The notes: generated by a model from the letters alone, not told the origin. Shown: positions 5,560 through 64,000, numbered from the stretch's first letter. The stretch: 64,000 bases of DNA from an uncultured Gammaproteobacteria bacterium (GCA_964433095.1 CAYSPW010000002.1:9498-73497), one strand, 5' to 3'. Numbers and translations are program-made.

Positions 5560-5561
5560 TT

Positions 5562-15186: not shown

Positions 15187-15207
15187 TCGCTGATGCCTCT
15201 AACATTT

Positions 15208-18200: not shown

Positions 18201-19659
18201 CATAAGGAGCTTCCGGTAGCCCATCCAATTCTATGATATGAAAAGCAAAGTCCCACATGTCGTAGCCTTCTGTGATTTGTGAAGGAAAAATCCACTCGGT
18301 ATCCCCAGATATCTCAACATCACCTATTGCAAGATTGTACACGATATAGTGAATGCGGTGGTTTCTCTGAGGTGCATCCACTCTAGCCGATATGAACACA
18401 GTATCTCCAACGCCAAAACCGTTACCTTCACCATACTCACTACCATTACAACGATAGAACCAGTCGGCATTGGGTGTCGGCCTTTCGGTGCAAATTGTCG
18501 GGTTTGGATAGTAAATTGATGGGCTATTTACTACATAACCCGGATCGTATGGGCCTCTCTGAACACGATATGAAAAAACCACTTCTGGATCATCTGAATA
18601 TTCGGTGAATCCACCACCTGTGTCGACAAATACCCTGAAGATCCATCTCGTCCACTTTCTCTCGGGAGTCCCGATCCTCTTGAGATCATCATGAACCCGT
18701 ACATTCTCAAAGGTGACATGAAGGATTGATTCACCTGATGGTTCGCGCCATTCCGTGTTCCAGCTCCAATCCAGGCAGTATTCTTCGTGACTATTTTCTG
18801 CAGCACAATCCTCTGTTCCCTCACGATAAGCCTCTACTCGATAACGATGTGCGACATCAATGTCGAAAACAGCAAGGCTATGTACCGTGTCGCCTGAGAA
18901 TATTTCATACGAGGGGTTTTCCTGTGCAACTAAAACATTTTCGTTGTCTAAATGAGATATCCCCCCAGCACTTCTACCCATTTCTAGACCGCACGTGTCA
19001 TCATTTAGAAGGTAAGTGCAAGAGATTGGGTTGAGGTTAGAAGGGACAAATCGAACATTGTTTCTTTCCGTAAAACCGTCATGCCAACCTCGGTGCAGTT
19101 CGGTCATCTTCGTATTTCCTATTTTTACATCCTTCAGCATCTGGTTCGTTTCTAATCCACTGTCAAGGTGTGCTAACTGTTGGTGAAGATGCGATCCATC
19201 TGAGTAACCACTGTTTCCAAGTATACCGACCATCTCGCCCTTTGATACATAGCCCTTTTCCAAAACTCCCTGTGGAATCGACCCCTCCTTCAGATGTGCT
19301 AGTTTGACCGAATAGCCCGCGCCAAAGTCAATCTCAATATAGCAGCCAAAAGACAGTACATCTGTCCCGAATGTGTTGGGGCAAAGCGCATTACGTGATT
19401 TCAACACCTTACCTGATACCGGAGAGACAATCTGTACTTCAGTTTGATTACCCCCCTGACGAATTTGATCATCCCAATCAAGAGAATAGAATCCGTTTCC
19501 TATATGAGTGTCAGATTCGCCACAGCCAACGGTAAGGTACCATTGTAAGCCTGATGGCATCGCCGAATCGTAGCTTGCGCCTAGATATTGAGCACTTGCA
19601 GCTTTGGCAAGAAGGAACAAAGTCACTACACAGCATGTTAATTCCGCTACCTGTCTCAT
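15208..19659 (-). CDS. giant (1483 aa) secreted cysteine-rich protein with N-terminal M23 peptidase domain and tandem Cys-rich modules
   Basis: signal peptide (LLAKAASAQ); M23 motifs (GNGFYSLDWD...GSHLHQQ); more than 100 Cys; repeated C-G-x-W-x-x-G-C-G-x-x-L-x-C-G-x-C units; acidic CxDxxDxD calcium-binding-like segments. Confidence 0.7.
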   Translation of the reverse strand: MRQVAELTCCVVTLFLLAKAASAQYLGASYDSAMPSGLQWYLTVGCGESDTHIGNGFYSLDWDDQIRQGGNQTEVQIVSPVSGKVLKSRNALCPNTFGTDVLSFGCYIEIDFGAGYSVKLAHLKEGSIPQGVLEKGYVSKGEMVGILGNSGYSDGSHLHQQLAHLDSGLETNQMLKDVKIGNTKMTELHRGWHDGFTERNNVRFVPSNLNPISCTYLLNDDTCGLEMGRSAGGISHLDNENVLVAQENPSYEIFSGDTVHSLAVFDIDVAHRYRVEAYREGTEDCAAENSHEEYCLDWSWNTEWREPSGESILHVTFENVRVHDDLKRIGTPERKWTRWIFRVFVDTGGGFTEYSDDPEVVFSYRVQRGPYDPGYVVNSPSIYYPNPTICTERPTPNADWFYRCNGSEYGEGNGFGVGDTVFISARVDAPQRNHRIHYIVYNLAIGDVEISGDTEWIFPSQITEGYDMWDFAFHIIELDGLPEAPYEIDMFVHTEDNRQYDIPDYVTQFRVGEETGGDCLDEEMFCDNGLDDDCDGLVDTEDPECPTPCTPRADFRCYEGDVYWYNSCEERGSLLVDCAESTCVNGRCEERGIFWHPDGSLIQTQSGLCVHEGGDSEVNCLYLLEDGCLRYIANPDNLEDPDAFDLGLNIFVSEEELRCYPLCEEYNLATETVSFQAFVRNGTLYAYYDGLSYDREVGKVNESTFEQLALSWGRDAELGGGEVWDLKRSLVEEAAYHPGFLLKHQGNYYVTLFNHEIRQLNMSQAELARAGYIVTDFVSIPSSVDRRWLGQQQSSLTIADFEDSSHCGDMPECTEASDCPEPIPGEWSECLSIENVCDENGTQSRYVPTVSCVDGSCDYSQGVTEEQNCPVETDGLECGLNRICRGGECQDTCTDDCLPQGRTQCTGELIQTCGNHDQDECLEWSSPTSCPDGVCYENSCCAPDTCISLQVECGDWPNGCGDTLECGGCGIGETCDLTGTCVTTCSDECDMIDETRCVDGIEETCGDFDPDDCLDWGNAITCTYGCSGNTCAGCTPTTCEAIGSNSCGPWPDGCGETLECGICDELAQEECQNGFCVCVPRECLVSECGTPDNGCGMSLECGDCTGVDICYEGECCTLQSCADLGHDCGTWDNGCGDEVTCPACGFNEQCVAGVCEPLGPCEDNACAIRFDPNDNGRILILPTEFDLQDGTPFENVTPCVIGWSRWADDTFNHVEIAISDTDSDGWLEYDLPEIWSGDAPYQGCINCRSYVPFRFAFRRCNDDVTIADHYLDIGSASDSRTGDFYWTDLGPDKCKETSSFAVSFDGVEYYASGARTSNQSSCLFCPEHEAGWNGVCQQDLHGAIDSNESGENAGHSDFTADQIDNDWDCYCEVAPCEPSENPHCTETLGGDCDDNPFDNIDNDPRVICEEAGGVFFIYTTNTCPANSTFWMWADGSEQNNPAMHDYELGGWDNDCDGEFDEGGDDPCTWESDGEYFKVYCDWL
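16225..16830 (-). repeat. four tandem ~40-codon Cys-rich repeat units inside the giant gene (CG[DPT]W[PD][ND]GCG[DE]xLxC)
   Basis: repeated nucleotide strings such as ccattcggccagtctccgcactc / cagccgtcgggccacggtccacagg / catccattgtcccaggtacc on + strand. Confidence 0.5.
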
Positions 19660-19712
19660 CTCGCTTGCTCCTTCTTAACGTCTATGTACATGCCACCACC
19701 TGATATCTTCAC

Positions 19713-20447
19713 TCAGTATTCCACACTAGACACGATCTGCTTGAAAACTTGATAGAGTTCGTTGCTCTCTATCTGTCCCAGCAGTTCTTGATTGCATCCA
19801 TGGATATCCTGGTATGTGTATTTGCCGGTGATATCGTCTGATTTGAGTAGTGTGCCAACATTAGAAAGATAGACTACGAATAATACGTTCGGGTATTCCT
19901 TTGTTTGGTTCTGAACCAGTCCCTTCAAGTACACATTCGAAAGCGAAGGTTTCCTTAAGTAATCCTCACTTTCTCCGTAGTCAAAGAAAACCTGATATAT
20001 GAAGGCGTTATTGGATACTACTTCAGGATCACAGTGGAGATCTTCGTTCTCGGATTCGAGTTGTTCCCCCAATGAACCATTGAGTTCAAATTCTCGTGCT
20101 CCAAAAGATGGCGAATATTCACTCGAGCCAATTGATACATCCCACGTTTCAGCCCGAATGTAGATAGATTTTCCTGTTTCCTGGTGACGGAGAGTGATTC
20201 TGATCACCCTACCTGAATCACCATCATTGGACGATTGAACAAGATTTGTACTTTCTGTGTCTTCGATTTCCCAACTATTAGGATAATGAAAGCGGATATC
20301 AAGTTCTTCATTATAATAAACATTTAGGTTGTCTGGATTCCTTTCATCTTTCAATGCTGGAGACTCGCACGCAACACAAAATAGCATCACTGTAAGGGTG
20401 AATAGGGCAACGAGTATTACGCTGTAAATTTGCGGTTGTTTCATGTT
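19713..20447 (-). CDS. hypothetical secreted/lipoprotein-like protein (start at MKQPQIYSV, signal peptide ending ...LFCVAC)
   Basis: N-terminal hydrophobic signal with Cys after it; no family recognised. Confidence 0.45.
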   Translation of the reverse strand, partial: NMKQPQIYSVILVALFTLTVMLFCVACESPALKDERNPDNLNVYYNEELDIRFHYPNSWEIEDTESTNLVQSSNDGDSGRVIRITLRHQETGKSIYIRAETWDVSIGSSEYSPSFGAREFELNGSLGEQLESENEDLHCDPEVVSNNAFIYQVFFDYGESEDYLRKPSLSNVYLKGLVQNQTKEYPNVLFVVYLSNVGTLLKSDDITGKYTYQDIHGCNQELLGQIESNELYQVFKQIVSSVEY

Positions 20448-20502
20448 GTATCCTTTGATGTCATTTAGACATGACGCGATCGCTGTGTCAGTTCGCTTGT
20501 CT

Positions 20503-23034
20503 TCATAACGTGCTTGCATGTCGCCAGCCAGCCTCCTCAAGACGATCTCCGAAGCTCTTCTTTGTCATCTCTGCCAAGGCCTCGATCGTTCTCCTGATTC
20601 GACGCTGCGCCGGCAGATGCCGGCCACGCTTGAGGTTCTTCCTCGAGAAGAGTTGACGCTGCTTCTTGACGAACTTCCGTACACGGTGGCCAACATAGTC
20701 GTCTTTCTCGATCTTACTGAGCAGGACGGGAACCTTTCCCGCATGTGGCTCTCGGAGGATTCTAAGAGCCAAGGTGAAGCCCTTCACATAGACAGGTGAA
20801 AGGTCTCTGTGCTTCCCTAGTATCCTGTAGATGGACCGTGTCCAAGGTTTGATGTACTCAGGATAGACGTTCCGCAGCAACTGATCAAGGTTCGATCCGT
20901 CTCTGAGTGGACCCTGTGTAAGAGCTTGAAGACTCTTTGTCAGCAGCCCGGGTAGCACTTCATCAGAGCACTTGGTGAGGTACCGGTCGAGCTCCTGTGC
21001 TTCCTCTATCTTCAGGTGTTTTCTGAAGAGCTCCTCCAGCTCAGGTCTACTCGGATACTGTTTCATGTGGTAGAGAACGAGGCGCTTCCGGTAGGCTGGC
21101 AGCTCGAGCTCCTCGAGGAGCTCATGCACTTTCCTCTCAACATCGAACCAAGCATCTTCGATCAGTTTGTCCGTTGTTCCATCGTCCCATTCTTGCAGGT
21201 GCTCGAAGTAGTGACGATGCAGCTCATTGCGGTAGTGGCGGATGCAGGTTGACATCGGCAGGAGAAGCTGTTTGGGCCGAGCCACTTCCTTTTCCTGGTG
21301 CTCGCCTTTGTCTGCTTCCCTCAGCAACTCTATCGTCTCTCGAACGAGGGCAAGAGATTGAGTATCCGTTGGATTCTCGATGAGAGTCCGGATGACTGTC
21401 TCCATCCGGCCATTTCTCAGGGCGGGAGGTAGATAGCCTTCTGTCTTTTCGATATCATCTTCAAGAGGTAGGTCATTCGGGTTGAGGACGGGGCTTTGCT
21501 CCTCAACCTCTTCTTCCTCAATGAGCTCAGGCTCGAATGAGACGAAGAGATCATCTTCAGAGTCTCTGTCCCACACCGGTTTCTCTTGTTGATTAATTTC
21601 CTTTACTTTATCACATTCTCTCAAAATTTCAAGTTCTTGACCTATCCTCTCATGTTCAAGCCACTCATGGTCCATGAGCAGTCTGTTTCTCTCACTACTC
21701 CAAGCCTTTTCAGCCAGTCTCACTTGATACGAGATGACCTTTGAGACAAGCTGCTCGAAACGCTCCTTTTCTTGGTGCTCTAAGAGTAAAGTGAGTGCTT
21801 GCTCAAGGAGATCGGCACTCAGTCGATCATTGTGCTTCAATCTGCGAAGCAGGTCATCACTTGGGAAGACCTCTGTCTGCTCCAAGCCCCAGTCCTCGAG
21901 GTAGGTCGGGATGTCAGAGAATCTGATTGTGCCACCATCGTAGGCAATCCGTATAAGATAGTAGAAGAAGTTGTCGCTCACATTGACGCGCATGCGTTCC
22001 AACCAGTTGTCACGAATTAGTTTTCCGCCCCCTATTTTATCACAACAGGGTGGACAATGTGGCAACAACACCTTCGCCAAGAGTGGATCCGCGATTGATT
22101 CGTACTTGTCAGATAAACTGGACTCCTCATCCCTAATGAGCATGCGTACCAACCTCATGCCAAAGCTCGGTGGATTCTTAGATAGGATCTGTCCAAGAAA
22201 CTCCTGAAAGTCCTTTCCTTGCTGAAGAAGCAGGTCAGTCAGCTCAAACTGGTCCGATTGACCGATGTATGCTTGGTAGGTTTCTTCGATCACGGGGTAG
22301 GACTTCTCATCATGCAGTAGCTCACACAAGCAAATGGTCTTGACGATCGGGTCCTGGATTTGCGAGATGGCCGGAACCAAGGACTCTCCGTTTTTGAGCG
22401 CGTGTGCCAGATAGGTCTTCCTGAGACGTTCAATGAACTCAGGGCGTTCTTTCAAGATACGCAGGAGGAGATCAAGCTCACCGCTGTACACTTCATTCCC
22501 TAGACGATCCCTGAGACTCTTGGGGAGCTGCTTGAAGTCGAAGGTGTAAGGATGTCTGACAAATAAATCCACCAGTTCGTCATCGCTCGGCTCGTGGGTC
22601 TTGAGGAGTTTTTGCAGGAGCTTGAACTCTTGTCGGTCTCCCTCCCAATCACTTGAATTGATGTTGTGAGTAAAGTACTGCCATGCGGCTGTCTTCGCTT
22701 TCGGGGTGTCGATGTAGAGATCTGAGAAGGACTCACTCACTCGTGCACATTCAGTAGCGCGACACAAGGAACGTATTGCACCAGAAAGTGATGAAGAGTT
22801 TATCGAGGAAGCGGCGTAACTCTTTAGGTCGAAGAGTATATAGACCTGCTCGTGCAGATAGGGATGGCAATAGGTCATTACTAGGTCTGAGGGATGGGTA
22901 CTGGTGCCGTGTCGACGCTGATAAACACATTCCCAGTTCTCGTCCGTAGGACCCACTTGGATCCAGAGGAAGGCATCAAAGATATCCGACGCAACTTTGT
23001 TTGCCATTTCAGCAATGTTTGCAGTCTCAGGCAT
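20503..23034 (-). CDS. large hypothetical protein (843 aa), N-terminal PD-(D/E)xK-like motif (HPSD...EQVYILFDLK), remainder alpha-helical
   Basis: motif read from translation; no other family recognised by eye. Confidence 0.5.
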   Translation of the reverse strand: MPETANIAEMANKVASDIFDAFLWIQVGPTDENWECVYQRRHGTSTHPSDLVMTYCHPYLHEQVYILFDLKSYAASSINSSSLSGAIRSLCRATECARVSESFSDLYIDTPKAKTAAWQYFTHNINSSDWEGDRQEFKLLQKLLKTHEPSDDELVDLFVRHPYTFDFKQLPKSLRDRLGNEVYSGELDLLLRILKERPEFIERLRKTYLAHALKNGESLVPAISQIQDPIVKTICLCELLHDEKSYPVIEETYQAYIGQSDQFELTDLLLQQGKDFQEFLGQILSKNPPSFGMRLVRMLIRDEESSLSDKYESIADPLLAKVLLPHCPPCCDKIGGGKLIRDNWLERMRVNVSDNFFYYLIRIAYDGGTIRFSDIPTYLEDWGLEQTEVFPSDDLLRRLKHNDRLSADLLEQALTLLLEHQEKERFEQLVSKVISYQVRLAEKAWSSERNRLLMDHEWLEHERIGQELEILRECDKVKEINQQEKPVWDRDSEDDLFVSFEPELIEEEEVEEQSPVLNPNDLPLEDDIEKTEGYLPPALRNGRMETVIRTLIENPTDTQSLALVRETIELLREADKGEHQEKEVARPKQLLLPMSTCIRHYRNELHRHYFEHLQEWDDGTTDKLIEDAWFDVERKVHELLEELELPAYRKRLVLYHMKQYPSRPELEELFRKHLKIEEAQELDRYLTKCSDEVLPGLLTKSLQALTQGPLRDGSNLDQLLRNVYPEYIKPWTRSIYRILGKHRDLSPVYVKGFTLALRILREPHAGKVPVLLSKIEKDDYVGHRVRKFVKKQRQLFSRKNLKRGRHLPAQRRIRRTIEALAEMTKKSFGDRLEEAGWRHASTL

Positions 23035-23083
23035 TCGAGCCTCCTCTTGAGAGATTCTAGCAAATGCTGCCAGCCAATAAATG

Positions 23084-23902
23084 CTATTTTCGTGGCATCT
23101 TCAGTTTCTTGAGCTTTGCCCTTTTCTTCTTCTTACCCCATATGTTCTTAGTTTTTCTTTGTTGAGTCGAAAATTCATATACTATCTCCTCATAGGTCAG
23201 GCCTGGATGTATTACAGGAATTGCCGATCGCGCAAACTTCTGTTTCAAAGAGAGCTCACCAGATTTGGGTAAGATGACGCACGCGAGATCATACATTCTA
23301 AACTTCAAATCACCACGAACGCGCCATTCTCGCTCCCAAGTGAAATCGTATCTCTCATGCATGGCGTTGATAAAAGGAAGAAGTCTCCATATTTTACCCT
23401 TATGGAAGCCACCTTTTTTTGCAACGTTGAACAGACTATCGACAGCTTCACGCAACCACGTATTATCATTGTAGCTGTTGATGTAAATGGCCGGCTGAGC
23501 GCCCTTTGAAATAATGAACTCGCGACTGAACACGAACCCATACTCCTCGAACTGGTTATTTCGACCTGGAATACGTTGAGTGAGTAGATGAATTTGTGTG
23601 AGTGGAATCTCCGAAAAGCAACAAACACTGAACCTCTCTTGATACCTATCTGGTATGTCCTTCGCAAACAAGCAGTGAGGTAGATAGGCTGAGATTTGGC
23701 GTTCCTCAAGAATTGCGCGAAAGTTCTCTTTTGCTGACCCACCCGACTCACCAAACGTATTTGTATCGTTCCGTGTTAGGTGAACCACGAATTTCGAGAT
23801 GTCTTCGCGTCCGCTGACAGCAAATCCTCTTGAACCCATGACAAGACCAGAAGTAGATTTTGTGATAGCGCAGCAGTTAAGAGTACTTGAACATACGGCC
23901 AA
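23084..23902 (-). CDS. hypothetical protein, DarT/AbiGi-like abortive-infection family candidate (H ... Y-G-F-V-F ... E-R-E-W-R order)
   Basis: FVVHLTR, VCCFSEIPL, YGFVFSREF, WEREWRVRG segments; resemblance judged from memory only. Confidence 0.4.
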   Translation of the reverse strand: MAVCSSTLNCCAITKSTSGLVMGSRGFAVSGREDISKFVVHLTRNDTNTFGESGGSAKENFRAILEERQISAYLPHCLFAKDIPDRYQERFSVCCFSEIPLTQIHLLTQRIPGRNNQFEEYGFVFSREFIISKGAQPAIYINSYNDNTWLREAVDSLFNVAKKGGFHKGKIWRLLPFINAMHERYDFTWEREWRVRGDLKFRMYDLACVILPKSGELSLKQKFARSAIPVIHPGLTYEEIVYEFSTQQRKTKNIWGKKKKRAKLKKLKMPRK

Positions 23903-23971
23903 GAGTCAACAGTACCACTGATTGCATGAAGTTCCCCTCCACAAGATTCCTACTTCTGCTACGATGATGGA

Positions 23972-24172
23972 ATGAAAAACACAGTACCTGACAATCTACC
24001 TGTCATCCACGATGACCAAAAGGCTCTTCCCCAGGTCCCTCCAGAATTCTCAGAGAAACAAAGCAAGGCGCTCATCACCTTCCTCCTCACATTGAGAAAG
24101 ATTGCGGAAGATCTTATGGCTGAGGGATACACCTACGAAAACGGAGAGGTCATACCACCGAAACAGGATTGA
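23972..24172 (+). CDS. small hypothetical protein upstream of recombinase (possible directionality factor, unproven)
   Basis: 66-aa ORF co-oriented 38 bp upstream of serine recombinase. Confidence 0.3.
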   Translation: MKNTVPDNLPVIHDDQKALPQVPPEFSEKQSKALITFLLTLRKIAEDLMAEGYTYENGEVIPPKQD

Positions 24173-24210
24173 TGTGGTGGAGTAGTATCCACTGGATAAC
24201 CTAACATCAT

Positions 24211-25857
24211 ATGAAAACAAATAATTATCTCATCTACACTCGCAAGAGTGATGATGATGCCAACAACCAAAAAAACTCGATTGACTACCAAACAGCCGCG
24301 TGTCTACAGTTCGCAGAGCAGAACACCATTCCGGTTGCCTCGCTTGATAGAGAAGGCTTCATCGAGAACGGAGTCATCAAGGAGAGGCACACTGCTTTCA
24401 AGACCTCAGACATCAAGATAATGCCGGATGGTTCTGTTCGGTATGGCATCGAGCGGCCTAAGTTCCAGAAGCTCGTGCAGGTCTTGGCCAAGAGACAGTT
24501 CGCAGGAGTTGTCTGTCTCTGCTGGGATCGCATCAGTCGGAACGACCAGGATGCTATTCTCGTGAAGAAGTTGATCAAGGATGGCATCGACTTCCGGTTC
24601 GTCTGGGTCGACTATGCCAAGTCGAGTGCCGGAGCACTGCATATGGACATCGATGGGATGTTCGCCGTCCATCACTCGAGAGTGACCAGTGAGCGAGTCC
24701 GAGCGACCTATTCAAAACTTCGGAGTGAGGGTAAATGCACCTATCGAACCCCAATCGGTTACCTGGATCAGGGTCCGGACAACAAACCACTTGATCCGGA
24801 AAGAGCTCCCATCAAGCGCATCTTTAAGAAGTATGCGACAGGAGGTTGGAGCTACAACGAGCTCGCCAAATGGGCGATCCAACAAGGTCTCACTCACAAA
24901 CCCAGACGGCCGGATAGAACTCGAGAGGAGATCAAGGCAGGAGAGGAGAACAGAAAGCCAAAGGTACGCCATCCCATCAGTCATAAGACAATCGAAAATG
25001 TGCTCAAGAATCCCTTCTACGCTGGTAAACTAAGGCACAACGGGGATGTGTTTGATGGTATTCACGTGCCTCTTATCTCCCTCAGACTCTTCAACAAGGT
25101 ACAAGCGATGATCTCCTCAAGGCAGATTTCAGTCCACTACGTGGAAAAGGACTTCTTTGTCTACAGAGGTTTCCTTCGTTGTGTCTGCGGTCGAACGTAT
25201 TGTCCGTACAGAAAAAAGGGACACACATACTATCGCACGAAGTGCAAGGAGGGCTGCTCGAACGAAGACCCGAATCTAAGCGAGAAGTCAGTTCATGAGA
25301 AGGTAGAAGAACTACTCGGCGAGATTCACTTATCCGACGAGCAGATCCGCAAACTCGAAGAACAAGCCATGAATGGAGTGGACAGTCTTGCAGCACAGCG
25401 CGACCATACACTAGATGAGCTCCACAACCAACAGAGACGTATCTACAAGGACATCGACTACTTGAAGAAGTTCAAGATCTCTCTGCTACGAGAGCAGGCC
25501 TACTCTCCGGAGGACTTCCAGGCCGAGATGAGAAGACTGGAGACGGAGTTGGAAAACGTTCATGCTGAGATGGATACGTGCAAAGAAAAAGAGAGCGAAA
25601 TGCTCTCCTACATCTTGACGTTTACCGAACTCGTAAATTCCGCTAAACAATGGTACAAACACGCTCCAGACAAGAAAAAACACGAAGTTCTTTCCCAGGT
25701 GTTTACCGAACTGGTCTTCAAGGACAAAGAATTGGCTGGGTTTACAGTAAAAGAGGGCTATGAGACCCTCTTCAAAGTGCTTGATAGGAAGCGTGGTGCA
25801 CCCGGCAGGAATCGAACCTGCATTACGAAATCCGCAATCTCGCGTCCTATCCATTGA
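24211..25857 (+). CDS. large serine recombinase (resolvase N-domain + recombinase domain + zinc ribbon + coiled coil); last ~20 codons read through tRNA-Arg
   Basis: catalytic motif LIYTRKSDDD...Q, DRISRN motif, Cys cluster CVCGRTYCPY...CKEGC, C-terminal coiled-coil. Confidence 0.85.
   Translation: MKTNNYLIYTRKSDDDANNQKNSIDYQTAACLQFAEQNTIPVASLDREGFIENGVIKERHTAFKTSDIKIMPDGSVRYGIERPKFQKLVQVLAKRQFAGVVCLCWDRISRNDQDAILVKKLIKDGIDFRFVWVDYAKSSAGALHMDIDGMFAVHHSRVTSERVRATYSKLRSEGKCTYRTPIGYLDQGPDNKPLDPERAPIKRIFKKYATGGWSYNELAKWAIQQGLTHKPRRPDRTREEIKAGEENRKPKVRHPISHKTIENVLKNPFYAGKLRHNGDVFDGIHVPLISLRLFNKVQAMISSRQISVHYVEKDFFVYRGFLRCVCGRTYCPYRKKGHTYYRTKCKEGCSNEDPNLSEKSVHEKVEELLGEIHLSDEQIRKLEEQAMNGVDSLAAQRDHTLDELHNQQRRIYKDIDYLKKFKISLLREQAYSPEDFQAEMRRLETELENVHAEMDTCKEKESEMLSYILTFTELVNSAKQWYKHAPDKKKHEVLSQVFTELVFKDKELAGFTVKEGYETLFKVLDRKRGAPGRNRTCITKSAISRPIH
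25791..25803 (+). repeat. 13-bp direct repeat GCGTGGTGCACCC (putative attR core) overlapping tRNA-Arg 3' end
   Basis: exact copy of 12953..12965. Confidence 0.6.
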
Positions 25858-25868
25858 ACGACGGGTGC
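25795..25868 (-). tRNA. tRNA-Arg (anticodon GCG as read; CCA encoded)
   Basis: hand-folded cloverleaf: acceptor GCACCCG/CGGGTGC, D-arm GTTC..GGAC, anticodon stem CGAGA/TTTCG loop TTGCGGA, T-arm GCAGG-TTCGATT-CCTGC. Confidence 0.75.
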
Positions 25869-30086: not shown

Positions 30087-31001
30087 ATGATAAAAAAGGA
30101 AATCCTTTTTTCATATTTCCCTAAATATTCCTACACGCGCTATCAAACTCTACTGAAAGCTTTTTCCAATTTAGACAATGCCTGGCAGGCCGATTACTCT
30201 CAACTGAAAAAAACAGGTTGGAAGTCCGGTTTAATTCATGAATTCGTCGCTTGGAAAAACCATCTTGACGAAGAAAAAATAAATCAAGTGCTGAAAAAAG
30301 AAAATATAAATCCCATCACCATTGACGATTCGGCTTACCCGCCCCTGCTAAGACAAACATATGATCCGCCCCTGACTCTGTTCGTTCGCGGCGCGCTTGC
30401 CGATAACGGACCGACGGTCGCCATAGTCGGTACCAGGAAATGTTCGTCTTACGCGCGAAAAACGGTCAAACATTTGCTAAAACAACTGATTGAGTGCTAC
30501 CCTTCATCTCGGAACGGTCTACGGGTCGCGAGTGGTCTGGCACTGGGTATTGATGGGTTGGTCCATTGGGCATGCCTCAAAAATAACTGCCGCACCATTG
30601 CCGTACTCGGCGGCGGCGTCAATAAAGACCATGTGTATCCTGCCGCGCATAAAAGACTTTCGGAGCGGATATTAGAACAAGGCGGCGCGCTCATATCCGA
30701 GTATCCGCCCGGCGCGCTTCCTTCCAAATTCACTTTCCCTAAACGTAACCGCGTTATCGCCGGCATCAGCCTGGCTACGGTAGTGATAGAAGCGCCGGAA
30801 ACTTCCGGCGCCCTTATTACCGCGCAAAGCGCTCTTGATAACAACCGGGAAGTATTCGCATTGCCGCATCCGATAGACTCTGAAAGCGGCCGGGGCGGCA
30901 ATAGACTGATTCAATCCGGAGCGCATCCATTGCTTCACGCGAACGATATCATCAAGCAGCTTAACTTGAACAATAAAATTATTCAAAAAAATATGGAATG
31001 A
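30087..31001 (+). CDS. dprA: DNA-processing protein DprA/Smf
   Basis: Rossmann-like DprA core (IVGTRKCSSYA...SGLALGIDGLVH...VIEAPETSGALITAQ). Confidence 0.85.
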   Translation: MIKKEILFSYFPKYSYTRYQTLLKAFSNLDNAWQADYSQLKKTGWKSGLIHEFVAWKNHLDEEKINQVLKKENINPITIDDSAYPPLLRQTYDPPLTLFVRGALADNGPTVAIVGTRKCSSYARKTVKHLLKQLIECYPSSRNGLRVASGLALGIDGLVHWACLKNNCRTIAVLGGGVNKDHVYPAAHKRLSERILEQGGALISEYPPGALPSKFTFPKRNRVIAGISLATVVIEAPETSGALITAQSALDNNREVFALPHPIDSESGRGGNRLIQSGAHPLLHANDIIKQLNLNNKIIQKNME

Positions 31002-57179: not shown

Positions 57180-57269
57180 TGGCGGAAGGGGCGGGATTCG
57201 AACCCGCGGTCCGCTTGCGCGGACAACAGTTTTCAAGACTGTCGCATTCAACCGCTCTGCCACCCTTCC
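57180..57269 (-). tRNA. tRNA-Ser (anticodon TGA), class II
   Basis: acceptor GGAAGGG/CCCTTCC, anticodon stem ACAGT/ACTGT loop CTTGAAA, long variable arm, T-arm GCGGG-TTCGAAT-CCCGC, CCA encoded. Confidence 0.85.
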
Positions 57270-57275
57270 CTGCGG

Positions 57276-57362
57276 CGGAGAGGGGGGGATTCGAACCCCC
57301 GAGCCGCTTGCGCGACTAACACCTTAGCAGGGTGCCCCTTTCAACCACTCAGGCACCTCTCC
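57276..57362 (-). tRNA. tRNA-Ser (anticodon GCT), class II
   Basis: acceptor GGAGAGG/CCTCTCC, anticodon loop CTGCTAA, long variable arm, T-arm GGGGG-TTCGAAT-CCCCC. Confidence 0.85.
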
Positions 57363-57493: not shown

Positions 57494-58714
57494 ATGAAAA
57501 TTGCCATGATCGGGCAAAAAACCATTCCTTTCGTCAGGATAGGGGGCGGTATTGAAAAGCACGTGGAAGAGCTGTCCATACGATTAGTTAAACAAAGCCA
57601 CCAAGTATGGGTCTATTCCAGAAATTGGCATACCAAGAGAGGTAATCACCAAGAAAGATACAAAGGGGTGGAAATAATTTATCTGCCTTCCATTCCCACT
57701 AAAAACTTGGGTACCATTTCTCACGTACTGCTCTCCACTTTGCATGTTTTATTCAAAAAAGTGGATATTATTCATTTTCATGGAGTGGGTCCCTCCACCC
57801 TGGCCTGGATTCCGCGCCTGTTCAAGCCGCGAGTCAAGGTGGTAGTTACTTTTCACAGCATTGACCGCTTTCACAAAAAATGGGGCAGGTTCGCGAGAGC
57901 ATATTTAAGCTGGGGTGAATGGACCGCCTGTCATTTTCCGCATCGCACCATAGCGGTCTCGCGTTCCATTCAGCAGTACTGCCGCGAAAAATTCGGTAAA
58001 AAAATTTCCTACATTCCAAACGGCGTTGATCTAAAGGATGATATTAAGCCGGAAGACGATAAGCTAAAAAAATTCGGACTGAAAAAAAATCAATATATTC
58101 TTACCGTAGCCCGCTTGATCAAACACAAAGGCATACATCATTTGATAAAAGCATATATTAGATTGGAAAAAAGATATGGAGACGAAGACAAGAACTGGCC
58201 TGGTGGCAAAAAAATGAAACTGGCCATAGTGGGAGCTCCAAGCTTTACCGATGATTATCTTCAGTATCTGAAAAAACTGGCGGCCGAAAGCGAAAACATT
58301 TTGTTTGTCGGCTTTCAAACCGGCAAAACACTGGCCCAACTGTTCGTCAACGCCTATCTTTACGTGCATCCATCCGAATCCGAAGGACTTGCTTTATCCA
58401 TACTGGAGGCCATGAGCTACGGTAAATGCGTGCTGGTTTCAAACATCGCCGAAAATCTGGAAGCGGTGGGCGACACCGGTCGCGTATTCCGGTCCAAAAA
58501 CATAAAAAATCTGGAACAAAGCTTGGATCAAATATTGCGCTCAAAAAAAGAAATCAATCGCTGCGGGCGAGAAACTCGCGCCTTCGTCAGAAAAAATTTC
58601 AACTGGGATGATATTGTGAAACAAACCGAAGAACTATATAAAAAACCGTTTCACGCAACTAGCCGCGCAAATAACAAAATCCGCCTACCGCGCAATCCGG
58701 GTATTTTTCTTTGA
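57494..58714 (+). CDS. GT4-family glycosyltransferase
   Basis: GT-B fold; E-x7-E-like motif region (ESEGLALSILEAMSYGKCVLVS). Confidence 0.8.
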   Translation: MKIAMIGQKTIPFVRIGGGIEKHVEELSIRLVKQSHQVWVYSRNWHTKRGNHQERYKGVEIIYLPSIPTKNLGTISHVLLSTLHVLFKKVDIIHFHGVGPSTLAWIPRLFKPRVKVVVTFHSIDRFHKKWGRFARAYLSWGEWTACHFPHRTIAVSRSIQQYCREKFGKKISYIPNGVDLKDDIKPEDDKLKKFGLKKNQYILTVARLIKHKGIHHLIKAYIRLEKRYGDEDKNWPGGKKMKLAIVGAPSFTDDYLQYLKKLAAESENILFVGFQTGKTLAQLFVNAYLYVHPSESEGLALSILEAMSYGKCVLVSNIAENLEAVGDTGRVFRSKNIKNLEQSLDQILRSKKEINRCGRETRAFVRKNFNWDDIVKQTEELYKKPFHATSRANNKIRLPRNPGIFL

Positions 58715-59360
58715 GCGCCGCGGCCGCCGCCCGCATGGTAGCGCCGCTCGTGTAAACATCATCCACCAGGATGATCTTTTTTTTATCAAGGGCAGCCGAA
58801 TCTTTGGCGGTAAAAGCACCGGTCATATTTTTAATTCTTTGCGCGCGCGCCAACCGTGCTTGCTGCCCGGTGTTTTTAACCCTTATCAAAGCTTCAACCA
58901 CGGGCAAATTTAATGCTCGTCCGACCGACCGCGCCAAATAATCGCACTGATTGAACCCTCTTTGCGCTTGTCTTTTTCTATGTAGCGGGATTGGACAAAC
59001 GCAATGGAAACCGGCAAAAATATCTCCGTGCGTAAATAGAAATTTACTGATATTGTCGTTAATAACGGGCAGCAAGTCTTGCACAAAATTATACTTGAAA
59101 TTTTTAACCAATTCAGCCTGAATGGATTTATCGGTATTTTTATGCATCGCAATCATCATGAACAGATCACTTTGATGATGACAAGATGGACAAACCCTGC
59201 CACCGACGGAAATTTGGTGGCACGCCGGACAACAAAAAATACCGTCCGCGGCGGCATTCGCATCGCATTTTTCGCATAACCACTCCCCTTCTTTGTCACA
59301 ACCCAAACAAAAGACAGGAAAGATGTATTGCTTTAAATTGTTAAATAAATATTTCAGCAT
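58659..59360 (-). CDS. comF: ComF-family competence protein (phosphoribosyltransferase-like)
   Basis: N-terminal double zinc finger (CLGCD...CEKCD; CCPACH...CPSCH) and PRTase motif ILVDDVYTSGATM. Confidence 0.75.
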   Translation of the reverse strand: MLKYLFNNLKQYIFPVFCLGCDKEGEWLCEKCDANAAADGIFCCPACHQISVGGRVCPSCHHQSDLFMMIAMHKNTDKSIQAELVKNFKYNFVQDLLPVINDNISKFLFTHGDIFAGFHCVCPIPLHRKRQAQRGFNQCDYLARSVGRALNLPVVEALIRVKNTGQQARLARAQRIKNMTGAFTAKDSAALDKKKIILVDDVYTSGATMRAAAAALKEKYPDCAVGGFCYLRG

Positions 59361-59426
59361 AGCTTGTTACACTATGCCGAAAAAGAGATTAAATATCGCT
59401 AAATTTTTTACAAAAAAATATTAAAG

Positions 59427-60005
59427 CTATTTCCAGTAAAGCCCGTCCACTTTCCACTCTCCGTATTGTTTAATCAGATCAATTGTACCGGACAGATTTT
59501 CCACTTCCTGAGAATCCGCCGTTTCGGTAATTCTTTGCGCTTCCAGCTCCAATTCCGCCATGGTATCGGTTAAGGACAATACTCTGGAAGCGATGACCCG
59601 GGTAGTGACGCCGCGGTAATCGACCGACTGTTCCTCCCTTTGCGTATTCATCCACGCGGCCATTTTATCGGTAACCAAAGGCAGAGTATCTTCTACGTGT
59701 CGGTTGTCGTTTTGGTTGGAATATGTGCCGAAGCGCTCCACGAAAATTCTAGCCATTTGCTTGACATAAATATCTTCACTGTAGGGTTCGGTCCGCGTCT
59801 CGCTCGGCATTTGTCGGCCCATTTGTTCGCGCACGTCCCGGTCAATTTGTTCAACTTCTTGCTCGGCCGTTACCGGTTCGGCTTGCCGGTCGGTCTCAGG
59901 CGCCTGTTCGGATTTGAAAAAAAACATATACAGAAGCAAAACCGACAGCACTATACCCACGACAATGCCGACAACCATAAATATTCTTTTTCTAATATCC
60001 ATCAT
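59427..60005 (-). CDS. hypothetical membrane-anchored protein (single N-terminal TM, acidic periplasmic domain)
   Basis: ORF adjacent to VirB4-like gene; no family recognised. Confidence 0.4.
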   Translation of the reverse strand: MMDIRKRIFMVVGIVVGIVLSVLLLYMFFFKSEQAPETDRQAEPVTAEQEVEQIDRDVREQMGRQMPSETRTEPYSEDIYVKQMARIFVERFGTYSNQNDNRHVEDTLPLVTDKMAAWMNTQREEQSVDYRGVTTRVIASRVLSLTDTMAELELEAQRITETADSQEVENLSGTIDLIKQYGEWKVDGLYWK

Positions 60006-60016
60006 ATATTTTAAAA

Positions 60017-61894
60017 TTATGTTTCTTGTTTGCGCAACACTTCTTGTTCAAATTCTTTTTTCGCTTTTTCAATCTCCAGCAGCTGGCTCGGATCCGAGGT
60101 TATCAATTGGTCTTCGGTATACGAGGCCACCACTTTAATGGCCGCGTGCTTGAGGCCGGCGAAAAATATTCCTTCTCCGACAGCGCTTTCCAGCAGCAGA
60201 TACTTCTCTCCTTCGGTCAGCATGAATGTTTTTTGAATCATATCCACCGATGCCGGAGACTGGCGCAGCAATAGCTGCAGCGCCGAGTTGGTTACGATCG
60301 CCTGTCCATATTGCGAACGCAAAAAGTCATTCACGTCTTGCGTAATGGTGGTTACTCCCAAATAGTATTTTCTGGCCCTTTTTACCAAAGCATATATGAA
60401 CTTGGCCGAATCTTCATGCGTCATCAGCCACCAGGCCTCGTCAATCACCAGAATGCGTTTTTTACGCTCCGATCGGACCACGTTCCAGATATAGTTTATC
60501 AAATTATAAATAGCCATTGGGCGCAACTCGTCTTCCAGATCGCGCACGCTGAACACCACCAGCTGGTTTTGCATGTTGACGTTTGTCGGTGAATTAAACA
60601 AGCCGGCAAAGGTACCTTCGGTAAATTTTCTCAGCTTCAAGGCCAAATTTTCCGCTCCTTCCATGCCTTCCAAAATATCCAGCAAATCCTGCATGATCGG
60701 CGGATCAATCGCGGACAAATCCGACTCGGCCGTGATATCCTTTTTGGCGTAAGTTTCAAGCAGTGCCCGATCCATGATTGAATCTTCTTGCGGGGTGAGA
60801 GAACCGAACATAACCCTGATCAGCCCTTTCAGTGTAATGACCGCGCTACGGATGACGTCTTCGGTGGATATCTGCTGACCCACCGGCCGCGGCAGATCAA
60901 ACGGATTGACTTTGCTTTCCGAAGACAGGGAAATGTTTACATATGTCCCTCCCACCGCTTCGCTCAGATGCATATATTCCATTTCCGGATCTATTATTAT
61001 TATATCCACTCCAAACATCAATGAACGCAGCACTTCCAGCTTGACCGCGTACGATTTGCCCGCGCCCGAGGTGGCGAAAACCACCATGTTGGCGTTCTGC
61101 AAAGAAAAACGATCAAATATTATCAAGCTGTTGTTGTGCCGATTTATGCCGTAGAGTATGCCATCGTCGCTGGTTAGTTCAGACGATATAAAAGGAAAAG
61201 AAGAGGCAATGGGCGAGGAATTCATGTTAAAGGTGATCATCAGCTCGTCAATACCGACCGGCAAGGTGGAAGTGAACCCTTGTTCGGACTGATACAAAAC
61301 ATGCTTGGTGTAAATCAGCTTGGAGGAAAAAATATTTTCCACGTCTTCGGTAATCTTATCCAACTCTTCTTTGGATTTGGAATAAACCGTGACGTAAAAA
61401 GCGAATTGGAAAAAATGCTCTATGCCCTGGGTCAGATCGTCGCGCAGCTGCTCAATATCGCGCAAGGCTGTTTCGCGCAACGGGTCGCGCGGCGCTCCCT
61501 TTTCCGCGTCCGCGGTCAATTGAGCGGACAAAGCACCAACCTTCTTTTTTAATTGTTTTAATATTATACCCGCGGGAACCGGATAAAAGAACATGGAAAC
61601 GTCCATGGTAAAATTCAAATTTAAAATCGGAGAGCTCCAGCCGACCGCTATATACCGCGGAAAAGTGATCACGAAAATGGTGCGTAGATAAATATCTCCC
61701 AGCTGCACGAAATTGGATTCCACTCGGAAAGCGGACGGCGCGATCAAATCACGAATAGCTACCGTGCCTTCGCGGAAAACTCGCTCTTCTTCCAAAGTGA
61801 TTAACTGCTCCTTGGTTTTCTCCTCTTGTTCCTTGGCTTTTTTTTTGGATTTTTTTTCTTTCTTGTCTTCGGTTGTAATTGGTTTAAACGGCAT
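60017..61894 (-). CDS. VirB4/TraC/TrbE-family type IV secretion ATPase
   Basis: VirB4-like N-domain (IAPSAFRVESNFVQLGDIYLRT), Walker A FATSGAGKSYAV, Walker B region ILVIDEAWWLM. Confidence 0.8.
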   Translation of the reverse strand: MPFKPITTEDKKEKKSKKKAKEQEEKTKEQLITLEEERVFREGTVAIRDLIAPSAFRVESNFVQLGDIYLRTIFVITFPRYIAVGWSSPILNLNFTMDVSMFFYPVPAGIILKQLKKKVGALSAQLTADAEKGAPRDPLRETALRDIEQLRDDLTQGIEHFFQFAFYVTVYSKSKEELDKITEDVENIFSSKLIYTKHVLYQSEQGFTSTLPVGIDELMITFNMNSSPIASSFPFISSELTSDDGILYGINRHNNSLIIFDRFSLQNANMVVFATSGAGKSYAVKLEVLRSLMFGVDIIIIDPEMEYMHLSEAVGGTYVNISLSSESKVNPFDLPRPVGQQISTEDVIRSAVITLKGLIRVMFGSLTPQEDSIMDRALLETYAKKDITAESDLSAIDPPIMQDLLDILEGMEGAENLALKLRKFTEGTFAGLFNSPTNVNMQNQLVVFSVRDLEDELRPMAIYNLINYIWNVVRSERKKRILVIDEAWWLMTHEDSAKFIYALVKRARKYYLGVTTITQDVNDFLRSQYGQAIVTNSALQLLLRQSPASVDMIQKTFMLTEGEKYLLLESAVGEGIFFAGLKHAAIKVVASYTEDQLITSDPSQLLEIEKAKKEFEQEVLRKQET

Positions 61895-61906
61895 AAATAA
61901 CTTTTT

Positions 61907-62593
61907 TTAAATGTTTTCAACCTGCAACTCTTCTATCGGCTGCAAAGATTCGGCAAAAGATATATCCGGATTGTAAGTGGAATAATACAATTCTATCAAG
62001 GCTTGCGTGTCAAGTTGGACCACTGACAAACCCATCGTCTCCAAGCCGCTTATCACCTGTCTCACCCGCAGATCCAAATCATATTTCCTCTTTTTAAACT
62101 TTTCCTGCCTCAAGCGCAAAGTCAAAGCCGGTTTCAGCACTTCTTTGAACCTTGACCAAAAGCTTTTCTTTTTGTTGCTCAGCGGATCGTAGGGTACCAC
62201 CACGAAAAATTTTTTGGTCATGATTTGCCCGATTTCCACCATCTCTTCCACAAAAGCGCGATAGTCGGCAATCTGCACCCGCAGCAGCTCATTAGGCTGC
62301 TCTTTCTCCGCCCGCACCAACTTTTCCAAATACGGCTTGACGCGCAAACGCCGAGACTGCACCACTATTTGAAGCGGAAAATCAATGGAATTCAAAAAGC
62401 TGACATAAGAAGAAATCAAAGCATTCTGTTCATCCTCGGACTTGAGCGCGAAATTGATGCTGGAAGTAATCAATACCGCCCGTAAAGTGCCGTCTTTGAG
62501 CACCAAGACTCCTTCTTTGATTTCGGAAAAAGGCAGATAAGACTGGGTGGACGGCCGCTTTTGTTTTTTTGCTTTTTTCTTTTTATCCTTCAT
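61907..62593 (-). CDS. hypothetical protein, T4SS-associated by context
   Basis: 228-aa ORF between PrgI-like and VirB4-like genes; basic N-terminus. Confidence 0.4.
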   Translation of the reverse strand: MKDKKKKAKKQKRPSTQSYLPFSEIKEGVLVLKDGTLRAVLITSSINFALKSEDEQNALISSYVSFLNSIDFPLQIVVQSRRLRVKPYLEKLVRAEKEQPNELLRVQIADYRAFVEEMVEIGQIMTKKFFVVVPYDPLSNKKKSFWSRFKEVLKPALTLRLRQEKFKKRKYDLDLRVRQVISGLETMGLSVVQLDTQALIELYYSTYNPDISFAESLQPIEELQVENI

Positions 62594-62599
62594 AAAAAT

Positions 62600-63049
62600 T
62601 TATCTGTTACTTCTTTGAAAATTATTGGCGCCGGCATAATATCCGCCCGTATTTACGATCAGCGATAGATCCCTGATATGCGTGCGCCCGGCTCTTTTGC
62701 GTTCTTCCGCGCTCGGAGCGGCTTTCTCGGTGCCTGCTTCGCGCAGAAATTCAAGCTCTTTCTTGCTGTAGGTCTTGTACCAAATACGCAGACCGGGCTT
62801 GCGCAAAGTCTGTAAAATATTCAAAACCAGATAATGAAAAGGTTGCCCGCCAATCTTGACGAACGCGAACAAAATGGCGATTCCCAAAACAACCACCAGC
62901 ACACCGATAAAATATGAAAAATCCAAAAACCGGTAAGCCAAAAAGATAAAAACCCCGGCCACGAGCAAAATTAAAAATTGCCGGGTGGTAATCGGTCCGA
63001 ATATCTTATCCTCCACGTCAATAAATTGCGGCACCACGAACTGCTGCAT
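62600..63049 (-). CDS. PrgI/VirB3-like small membrane protein
   Basis: N-terminal FIDVEDKIFGPITTRQF motif followed by two TM helices, as in PrgI-family proteins. Confidence 0.55.
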   Translation of the reverse strand: MQQFVVPQFIDVEDKIFGPITTRQFLILLVAGVFIFLAYRFLDFSYFIGVLVVVLGIAILFAFVKIGGQPFHYLVLNILQTLRKPGLRIWYKTYSKKELEFLREAGTEKAAPSAEERKRAGRTHIRDLSLIVNTGGYYAGANNFQRSNR

Positions 63050-63051
63050 AG

Positions 63052-63960
63052 CTATAATTTCAACTTGTTATTAAGATCAATTAAAGCCAAAAACTCATTC
63101 ATTTTTAAATTCCTCTCTTTGCCTTCAGTCAAAATCTCGGCTATTTTACGATCACTCATCAAAGACGCCTTGATCACCGCTTGATAGCTGCGGTACAAAG
63201 GGTTGTCAAACCAGGCCTCAAGCGCGTCCAGATAGAGCAGATAGGACTCTTGCTTCAGCACGGTAAACTTGTCCATTACCATATCCGCGGCCACTTGGGG
63301 ATCTTTGGCCAAGCGCCTAAAATCGGTCAAAGAAAAGGTGGCCATCTCTTCCACCGGTCCCATGGCGCGGCTCTCGCTCTCCGGATCAACCACGTCCCGC
63401 ACCACCGGCTTCAATTCTCTGACATCCACGCGCGTGGGGGGAAAGCTTTTATCCGCTTGCGAAGTGTCCGGTTGAGGCACACGCGCGGATGATTCGGCCG
63501 CTTCCTCGGGCGGAGGTTCGACCGCCTCCGACTTCAGAGCGCGGATATCTTTGCCATGCCTTTGCATCACCGTGTGAATGGCGGCCAGCAATTCCCTGAC
63601 ATTATCTCGGCTCAAGTCCAAGCCGCCTTCGGATTGATGTTTTTGGGCGTATTCCAGCAGCTGATCATCGCCGCGCACTCCTTTGACCCGAGTGGTGATA
63701 AGCATATCAAGACGCCCCCGCAATTCCGGACTAACCTCAAATTCCAGCTCGGACGCGATCTCATCCACCATGTCGGCGTAGCTGTTGACCACGCCGCTTT
63801 CCGGTTCGGACGCTTTGACCGCCGGCCGCCGCTCCACTTGAGCTGAAGGCTTTTGTTCGGTTCGGGTCCGCGGTTTTTCCGCCTTGGGCAATTGTGTTTC
63901 AGCTTCGGATTTTCGCTCGGGTTGCGGCTTCATTGCCGCGGTCGACGGTTCCTGCTTCAC
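63052..63960 (-). CDS. hypothetical protein (P/E/K-rich N-terminus), T4SS-cluster context
   Basis: 302-aa ORF co-oriented and abutting PrgI-like gene. Confidence 0.35.
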   Translation of the reverse strand: MKQEPSTAAMKPQPERKSEAETQLPKAEKPRTRTEQKPSAQVERRPAVKASEPESGVVNSYADMVDEIASELEFEVSPELRGRLDMLITTRVKGVRGDDQLLEYAQKHQSEGGLDLSRDNVRELLAAIHTVMQRHGKDIRALKSEAVEPPPEEAAESSARVPQPDTSQADKSFPPTRVDVRELKPVVRDVVDPESESRAMGPVEEMATFSLTDFRRLAKDPQVAADMVMDKFTVLKQESYLLYLDALEAWFDNPLYRSYQAVIKASLMSDRKIAEILTEGKERNLKMNEFLALIDLNNKLKL

Positions 63961-64000
63961 GGCATTTTTTTGCTTGGCAGCTTTTTGCTTTTCAGGTGTT

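Follow-up and report, generated by a model that had tools for sequence, protein, structure and literature searches.

The closest described relatives of the locus treated here are the type IV secretion systems (T4SSs) of Patescibacteria. In an analysis of 3,035 Patescibacteria genomes, Quiñonero-Coronel et al. (2025, Microb Genom; PMC12102498) found a monophyletic clade of VirB4 ATPases nested in MPF_FATA. The most abundant associated component was TrsD, with 1,664 occurrences next to virB4, and homologs of PrgI/VirB3 and VirB6 were found too; VirB8 homologs were very few and "nearly all in a single class, ABY1." Relaxases were almost absent, type IV coupling proteins (T4CPs) were seldom near virB4, and in ABY1 the genes comF, recG, and radA were located near the T4SS. 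A 2025 review treats the Patescibacteria systems as a new T4SS branch (PMC12857230). In the Saccharibacterium Southlakia epibionticum, transposon sequencing showed that the T4SS genes are essential for epibiotic growth, and that ComEC, which mediates transformation, ComF, and DprA are non-essential (Wang et al. 2023, Cell; PMC10633639). ComFC is needed for transporting and handling single-stranded DNA (ssDNA) in Helicobacter pylori (PMC9005727), and a 2026 preprint on another Patescibacterium describes feeding on host RNA, with T4SS-like tubes where it meets the host. Here, we describe a gene cluster in a 64,000-nt stretch of DNA (CAYSPW010000002.1:9498–73497, titled "uncultured Gammaproteobacteria bacterium"), which in its full length is referred to as the window and from whose first base all coordinates are counted. 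The cluster is very probably the 3′ two-thirds of a chromosomal, vertically inherited T4SS operon of the Patescibacteria clade, in a Magasanikbacteria-like (class ABY1) genome.

Six co-oriented open reading frames (ORFs) were found on the minus strand at positions 58659–63960 (Table 1), as an earlier note on this DNA, made from the sequence alone, had reported. The gaps between them are of 2, 6, 12, 11, and 66 nt, an operon-like packing. The 625-aa protein is a VirB4-family ATPase. It matched the NCBIfam model NF045971 (VirB4-like conjugal transfer ATPase, CD1110 family) with 349 bits (curated cutoff 325, E = 5e-104) over model positions 174–728, so that the profile mismatch by which the earlier note would have given up its VirB4-like protein did not occur. 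Weaker matches were obtained with the VirB4 of the Mycoplasma integrative conjugative element (ICE), F-type TraC, and VirB4_CagE, and the Pfam models P-loop_TraG, AAA_10, and DUF87 agree with this assignment (PF19044 at 8.6e-26). Both nucleotide-binding motifs are intact, with the Walker A sequence ATSGAGKS at residue 274 and the Walker B sequence ILVIDE at residue 481, and among solved structures the one nearest in sequence is 4AG5, a VirB4 C-terminal domain (5.8e-48). Among the matches listed, at least 120 homologs were 81%–100% identical (81%–92% without one identical database entry), all 120 were 600–638 aa long, and all those with a name were labeled Magasanikbacteria or Patescibacteria.

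The 625-aa protein covers the VirB4 models only from about position 174–285 onward. The 228-aa protein encoded just upstream, in turn, matched N-terminal positions of these models (91–280 of NF045975, 3–179 of TIGR00929, and 2–105 of NF045971), as well as the TrsD/TraD family NF041427 (5e-8), and its homologs in relatives carry a precomputed hit to the TraC-like family PF26593. A search of its sequence against PDB chains gave no match. On NF045975 the coverage of the two proteins is complementary (91–280 and 285–892): VirB4 is encoded in two pieces, a TrsD-like N-domain protein and the ATPase. Instead of a single polypeptide with N-domain and ATPase, the locus has the known TrsD-type split, which is no defect, and the 228-aa protein, hypothetical in the earlier note, is in fact the detached VirB4 N-terminal domain.

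The 149-aa protein matched PrgI (PF12666) with 36.1 bits (cutoff 27) and has two hydrophobic, transmembrane (TM) segments within residues 16–53, so that both the PrgI/VirB3-like protein and, together with the VirB4 ATPase, the core of a Gram-positive-type (MPF_FATA-like) T4SS proposed earlier were confirmed. This protein is predicted to anchor VirB4 at the membrane. The 192-aa protein was not recognized by VirB8, TraE, or PrgL sequence profiles, which gave weak matches only (TraE TIGR02761, 18.9 bits, cutoff 109; IcmG/DotF, 20 bits, cutoff 200). In 17 homologs, an N-terminal TM helix is joined by a variable linker to a conserved C-terminal domain of ~115 aa, and the AlphaFold2 model is confident (mean pLDDT 84, above 90 in the C-domain). 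At the level of the predicted fold, the protein is bitopic with a C-terminal NTF2-like VirB8 fold, and what had been called a membrane-anchored hypothetical protein is, by this model, identifiable as a VirB8-like subunit.

The sixth ORF, rich in P, E, and K, was present as the earlier note had described it, except that 302 aa is not its complete length: no in-frame stop occurs upstream as far as base 63999, and the gene is thus cut by the window end. The homologs of this protein (p302) have 273–476 aa (337–476 aa in the 13 that were aligned), and the aligned ones begin with a conserved N-terminal motif that is absent from the window ORF, whose N-terminal ~60–170 residues lie past the window end. 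In this family, disordered linkers rich in P, E, and K connect two small helical domains; no TM segment and no match to a solved fold were found in it. It is a Patescibacteria-specific family of soluble T4SS-associated proteins.

The relatives compared comprised the three loci L001 (with a 92% identical ATPase), L002, and L003, ~80 species-representative genomes, and two further genomes. The order VirB6-X-Y(p302)-PrgI-TrsD-VirB4-VirB8-ComF is conserved in ~80 Magasanikbacteria species-level genomes, and the block was found, with its order kept, in every one of the ~80 related species-level genomes retrieved. The two further genomes have the same order, with different flanks and a p302 homolog only ~31% identical to that of the window. 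Given this recurrence, the gene order is far beyond a chance arrangement. Median identity to the window proteins across loci was 81% for VirB4, 70% for TrsD, and 60% for PrgI (the last measured across 75 related loci), and 32%–36% for p302, the VirB8-like protein, and ComF. VirB4 thus appears unusually conserved compared with its operon neighbors, a pattern in these alignments that suggests purifying selection on the motor.

Past the window end, the relatives encode, three genes upstream of PrgI, a protein of 986–1362 aa with 7–8 N-terminal TM segments and a large hydrophilic domain. It gave weak matches only to TrbL/TrbL_3 (PF04610, 18.5 bits, cutoff 25.9) and is probably an extended VirB6/TrbL-like protein. 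In relatives, the neighbors beyond the window are accordingly probably VirB6/TrbL-like and not FtsK-like, the latter being what the earlier note had named as the sign of a different machine. Between the VirB6-like gene and p302 is the gene for protein X (326–403 aa, TM-less, and without annotation), and these two TM-less unannotated proteins, X and p302, are fixed members of the block. The apparatus is not minimal, as had been suggested, since the window cuts the operon and at least two and a half more genes are upstream in relatives. The flanks upstream of the VirB6-like gene and downstream from comF differ between genomes (RecO, RuvX, and an aminoacyl-tRNA-synthetase-like ORF; SUF genes; an SSF transporter; GT4; and HSP20-VanW at variable distance), so that the VirB6-like gene is the first, and comF the last, of the conserved block. 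As judged from the relatives, the full module would consist of VirB6/TrbL-like, X, Y (p302), PrgI/VirB3, TrsD, VirB4, VirB8-like, and ComFC proteins.

Table 1. Features of the T4SS locus, of the rest of the window, and of related loci (coordinates of the window unless a related locus is named)
Feature	Coordinates	Strand	Remarks
ComF (ComFC-type)	58659–59360	−	233 aa; last gene of the conserved block
VirB8-like bitopic membrane protein (p192)	59427–60005	−	192 aa
VirB4-family ATPase	60017–61894	−	625 aa; middle domain and C-terminal P-loop domain
TrsD/TraD-like, separately encoded VirB4 N-terminal domain	61907–62593	−	228 aa
PrgI/VirB3-like membrane protein	62600–63049	−	149 aa; two TM helices
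p302-family soluble T4SS-associated protein, 3′ part of gene	63052–64000 (ORF 63052–63960)	−	302 aa in the window
12-bp stem–loop, p192–comF spacer	59352–59382	−	Terminator-like scan and RNA fold
GT4 glycosyltransferase gene	57494–58714	+	Convergent with comF
Two tRNA-Ser genes	57180–57362		Beside the GT4 gene
dprA	30087–31001		
923-aa protein	5535–8306	+	Adjoins RadA, near RecG (8363–9694 and 10785–12881)
Fused Shedu SduA_C and Peptidase_U49 protein	13471–15186		In island-like region 13471–25868
AbiGi-like protein	23084–23902		In island-like region 13471–25868
Serine recombinase	24211–25857		In island-like region; listed ORF overlaps tRNA-Arg (25794–25868)
23S_rRNA_IVP insertion, L001	9553–9960		Between TrsD and VirB4
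23S_rRNA_IVP insertion, L085	2056–2403		Between p302 and PrgI
23S_rRNA_IVP insertion, L057	8482–8829		Between p302 and PrgI
23S_rRNA_IVP insertion, L026	7018–7344		Upstream of p302

The placement in the Patescibacteria clade is by proxy, through the labels of the 120 closest homologs listed (81%–100% identical) and the MPF_FATA-type best models. As in the T4SSs of that clade, TrsD and PrgI/VirB3 are adjacent to virB4, and the context is chromosomal, with neither relaxase nor coupling protein by virB4. The trait of the ABY1 subtype, comF beside the T4SS genes, was also observed. Many records of metagenome-assembled genomes that carry a Magasanikbacteria-type locus (L005–L080, VirB4 76%–84% identical) are titled "uncultured Gammaproteobacteria bacterium," and such titles are evidently mislabeled public records.

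The last gene of the block encodes a 233-aa protein whose best match is TIGR00201 comF (5.2e-23), with 82 bits, below the curated cutoff of 233. It also matched PF00156 (31.5 bits, cutoff 26.3), and it has four CxxC motifs at residues 18–60 and a phosphoribosyl pyrophosphate (PRPP) loop, ILVDDVYTSGAT, at residue 197. With N-terminal zinc ribbons and a phosphoribosyltransferase-like domain that includes this loop, the protein is by its motifs probably ComFC-like (double zinc ribbon plus phosphoribosyltransferase-like domain), and the ComF that had been proposed here was upheld, within the conserved block. Among the 72 loci with enough flank, comF is on the same strand and at most 600 nt from the VirB8-like gene in 70, and it is also downstream in the two further genomes, which have very divergent accessory genes and unrelated flanks.

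In the window, the spacer between the VirB8-like gene and comF forms a stem–loop with the comF ATG within its 3′ arm (minimum free energy −17.9 kcal/mol, z = −2.8). Relatives often have hairpins in this spacer too, at positions that are not conserved. The structure may attenuate or control comF translation, and its significance is uncertain. Over positions 58400–64000, the promoter and terminator scan gave counts no higher than the shuffled expectation (6 vs. 7.4 and 11 vs. 7.8), and it gives no basis for placing operon boundaries. Downstream from comF, the putative terminator folded no better than shuffled sequences (z = +2.0). The GT4 gene overlaps the comF 3′ end by 56 nt and, among the loci compared, is at such a position only in the window and its closest relative, which makes it a marker of the block's downstream boundary, a variable one. 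It is followed by two tRNA-Ser genes.

By homology to monoderm MPF_FATA systems, PrgI would tether a two-piece hexameric VirB4 (TrsD plus ATPase) to the cytoplasmic membrane, where the VirB6-like protein would form a channel. The NTF2 domain of the VirB8-like protein would scaffold the extracytoplasmic, wall-spanning part, and ATP hydrolysis by VirB4 would drive assembly and the passage of substrate at the site of contact with the host cell. The module most likely serves a host-dependent (epibiotic) lifestyle. As to its role, we tentatively place first that it imports or handles host nucleic acid: in class ABY1 comFC shares the operon, ComFC acts in moving and handling ssDNA (PMC9005727), and there is the preprint on host-RNA feeding. 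The export of protein effectors, or the biogenesis of a pilus or adhesion structure, ranks second and is somewhat unlikely. Distinctly less probable is a more specific idea, namely that in ABY1 ComFC was recruited as a fixed cytoplasmic T4SS subunit, that the machine imports host single-stranded nucleic acid without ComEC or type IV pili, and that X and p302 are new adaptors in the cytoplasm that replace the missing coupling protein. Were this the case, the locus would encode a monoderm, contact-dependent device for nucleic-acid feeding or transformation.

Several points weigh against the T4SS operon as we read it, or against nucleic-acid import as its favored role. The VirB6-like gene and the start of the operon are outside the window and are deduced from relatives, with an ATPase 92% identical in the nearest of them. 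Neither a VirB2-like pilin nor a VirB1-like hydrolase was found inside the block, and directly upstream of the VirB6-like gene, where VirB2-like pilin genes were looked for in seven relatives, there were only unrelated housekeeping genes or non-conserved small ORFs. The stem–loop before comF could uncouple the expression of comF from that of the VirB8-like gene, which weakens the preference for nucleic-acid import, as does the case of Southlakia, whose T4SS is essential and which can do without ComEC, ComF, and DprA.

An unlikely alternative, although the best of the rivals, is that the T4SS is dedicated to DNA uptake (competence), as ComB is in Helicobacter and Ced in archaea, and that ComFC is its integral cytoplasmic receiver of ssDNA, which would work together with DprA, RadA, and RecG. 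The terminal position of comF in nearly all loci, and even in the two genomes with divergent accessory genes, speaks in its favor, as do the H. pylori precedent, in which uptake proceeds via a T4SS and ssDNA transport and handling need ComFC (PMC9005727), the proximity of comF, recG, and radA to the T4SS in ABY1 (PMC12102498), and the host-RNA uptake proposed in the 2026 preprint. RadA, RecG, RecO, RuvX, and DprA are, moreover, all encoded within the window. However, the comF linkage is confined to one class, and adjacency alone is no proof of shared function. In Southlakia, the single Patescibacterium with genetic tests, the T4SS and not the competence proteins is essential, and transformation depends on ComEC (PMC10633639); with this, the competence or DNA-uptake apparatus of the earlier note was not borne out and is kept as a hypothesis. 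The subunits specific to the other systems (CedA/CedB and ComB2–10) were not found either: in the family scans, the CedB model NF041017 reached 50 bits (cutoff 700) and the CedD model 19 bits (cutoff 600), with no other Ced or ComB matches.

The genes dprA, recG, and radA of the window are, in addition, remote from the block. The dprA gene, which the earlier note had joined to the cluster, is genuine (232 bits), but it is not a member, being 28 kb away and within 10 kb of virB4 in none of the 83 related loci. The same count was obtained for recG; in the window, dprA and recG are 28–47 kb, and recG and radA 47–50 kb, from virB4, and in related loci dprA and recG are non-syntenic with it. The link to a "bifunctional wall hydrolase," the 923-aa M23-like protein, could not be sustained: this protein and RadA are near virB4 in only one of the 83 loci (L034), and its bifunctionality was not supported, both the Peptidase_M23 match and the match of residues 367–428 to the VirB2-like T4SS_pilin PF18895 (22.7 bits) being below the cutoff. 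These residues form a two-TM segment, and an N-terminal TM or signal segment precedes them. The M23 proteins of the window are 39–55 kb from the block and non-syntenic. The idea that dprA, recG, and the M23 protein are scattered members of the cluster was rejected by synteny across the 83 loci. In L034, a homolog of the pilin-like segment and RadA are found ~8 kb downstream from virB4, and the 923-aa protein could be a dispersed pilin or hydrolase partner of the T4SS.

It is very improbable that the locus is a remnant or active part of an ICE or of a plasmid-derived conjugation system of Gram-positive type. The best models are indeed those of conjugative VirB4s (the CD1110 family, Mycoplasma ICE, and TraC) and of the TrsD of pGO1-type plasmids, and a serine recombinase is encoded elsewhere in the window (Table 1). 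Nevertheless, a Pfam survey of the 42 large ORFs of the 64-kb window turned up neither a relaxase nor a coupling protein of the VirD4/TcpA type, and no integrase beside the cluster, and none of the three was among the precomputed Pfam hits in the ±9–10 kb annotated around five related loci. The relaxase, T4CP (VirD4/TcpA), and VirB1-like hydrolase that go with a conjugative MPF_FATA system are thus absent from the block and from the window. With no relaxase, coupling protein, or integrase nearby, the module, a T4SS of Gram-positive-like type, is probably not a conjugation machine. The presence of the block, in the same order, throughout the related genomes also stands against a mobile element, and there is no compositional shift, the G+C content of the cluster being that of the rest of the window except for a P/E/K-rich low-complexity stretch at its far end. 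In the closest genome, VirB4 is 92% identical, compared with 84% for RNase III and 80% for NusB, which fits a core, vertically inherited, constrained machine better than a mobile element.

Two readings of the split VirB4, a pseudogene or expression through stop-codon readthrough, can be practically dismissed: in the window the two ORFs do share a frame, 12 nt apart and parted only by TAA and four codons, but a stop codon separates TrsD and VirB4 in 79 of the 79 related loci (TAA 49, TAG 25, TGA 5), the relative frames are evenly spread (26/31/22), the spacers reach up to 472 nt, the closest relative (L001) has a whole 135-aa 23S_rRNA_IVP gene between the halves, the 120 listed ATPase homologs are uniformly 600–638 aa long, and a separate TrsD is documented for pGO1-type and Patescibacteria T4SSs. 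A nonsense mutation or readthrough behind the in-frame TAA is ruled out, as a general explanation, by the statistics of the 79 junctions. The shared frame of the two halves in the window is coincidental, and the split is the native TrsD-type arrangement.

The small gene of the 23S_rRNA_IVP family (a four-helix bundle) was observed at different intergenic sites of the T4SS block across genomes (Table 1). These variable positions suggest a small gene, mobile or selfish, that can sit within operons.

The remainder of the window is, by the Pfam survey, an ordinary Patescibacteria chromosome, and the surroundings of the cluster are housekeeping genes. Besides the DNA repair and recombination genes (RadA, RecG, DprA, RecO, and RuvX), there are genes for chromosome maintenance (TopA, ParA/ParB, and ScpA/ScpB), for translation and RNA (Asp- and Asn/Lys-type tRNA synthetases, QueA, NusB, and RNase III), and for ClpB, RelA/SpoT, YceG, and VanW. 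The region at 13471–25868 resembles a defense or mobile island, and none of its genes is found in related T4SS loci. In addition to the proteins listed in Table 1, it encodes a 1483-aa M23 protein and two proteins, of 843 and 275 aa, without assignment.

Few machines have been shown to be essential to epibiotic life in the very large, mostly uncultured radiation of the Patescibacteria, and the T4SS is among them. The present locus adds no new kind of system; it is a clean, conserved ABY1 example that sharpens the question of whether the T4SS of this class handles nucleic acids. What is added here is the fold-level assignment of a VirB8-like protein, counts for the linkage of comF and the split of VirB4, and the recognition that two unannotated soluble proteins are fixed in the block.

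The locus shares with H. pylori ComB (with ComEC, ComFC, and DprA) and with archaeal Ced a T4SS-family ATPase machine alongside ssDNA handling of the ComFC type, and these systems provide a precedent for DNA import by a T4SS. However, ComB is a diderm VirB2–10 set with no operon link to comFC, and the Ced-specific subunits are absent from the present locus, as the low score of the CedB model indicates. The plasmids pGO1/pSK41 (TrsC-TrsD-TrsE) and pIP501 (TraC-TraD-TraE), of the MPF_FATA type of Firmicutes, have the same order of a VirB3-like protein, TrsD, and VirB4, followed by NTF2/VirB8-like proteins, and the same monoderm envelope architecture without VirB7, VirB9, and VirB10. They differ in that they reside on plasmids and are conjugative; they come with a relaxase, a coupling protein of the VirD4 type, and a VirB1-like hydrolase, and the present block has none of these within it or adjacent to it.

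The T4SS of S. epibionticum ML1 (SEML1_0006–0019) is likewise of monoderm type, with no relaxase or coupling protein, and its TrsD, PrgI, VirB6, and VirB4 homologs are essential. In that locus, an array of VirB2-like pilins is essential and peptidase and lysozyme genes are adjacent, no VirB8 was detected, and the cluster lacks comF, whereas the present one has a VirB8-like gene and comF and no pilin array within the block. The closest correspondence is with the ABY1 T4SS (PMC12102498), which, like the window, has a chromosomal virB4 with an adjacent separate TrsD, PrgI/VirB3, VirB8, and comF, with neither relaxase nor nearby T4CP, and which has VirB6 nearby, as the relatives of the window probably do. 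Nothing essential differs; the recG and radA genes of the window are distant from virB4, as noted above, instead of adjacent. The arrangement was thus already described in 2025, and the locus is an ordinary instance of its ABY1 form.

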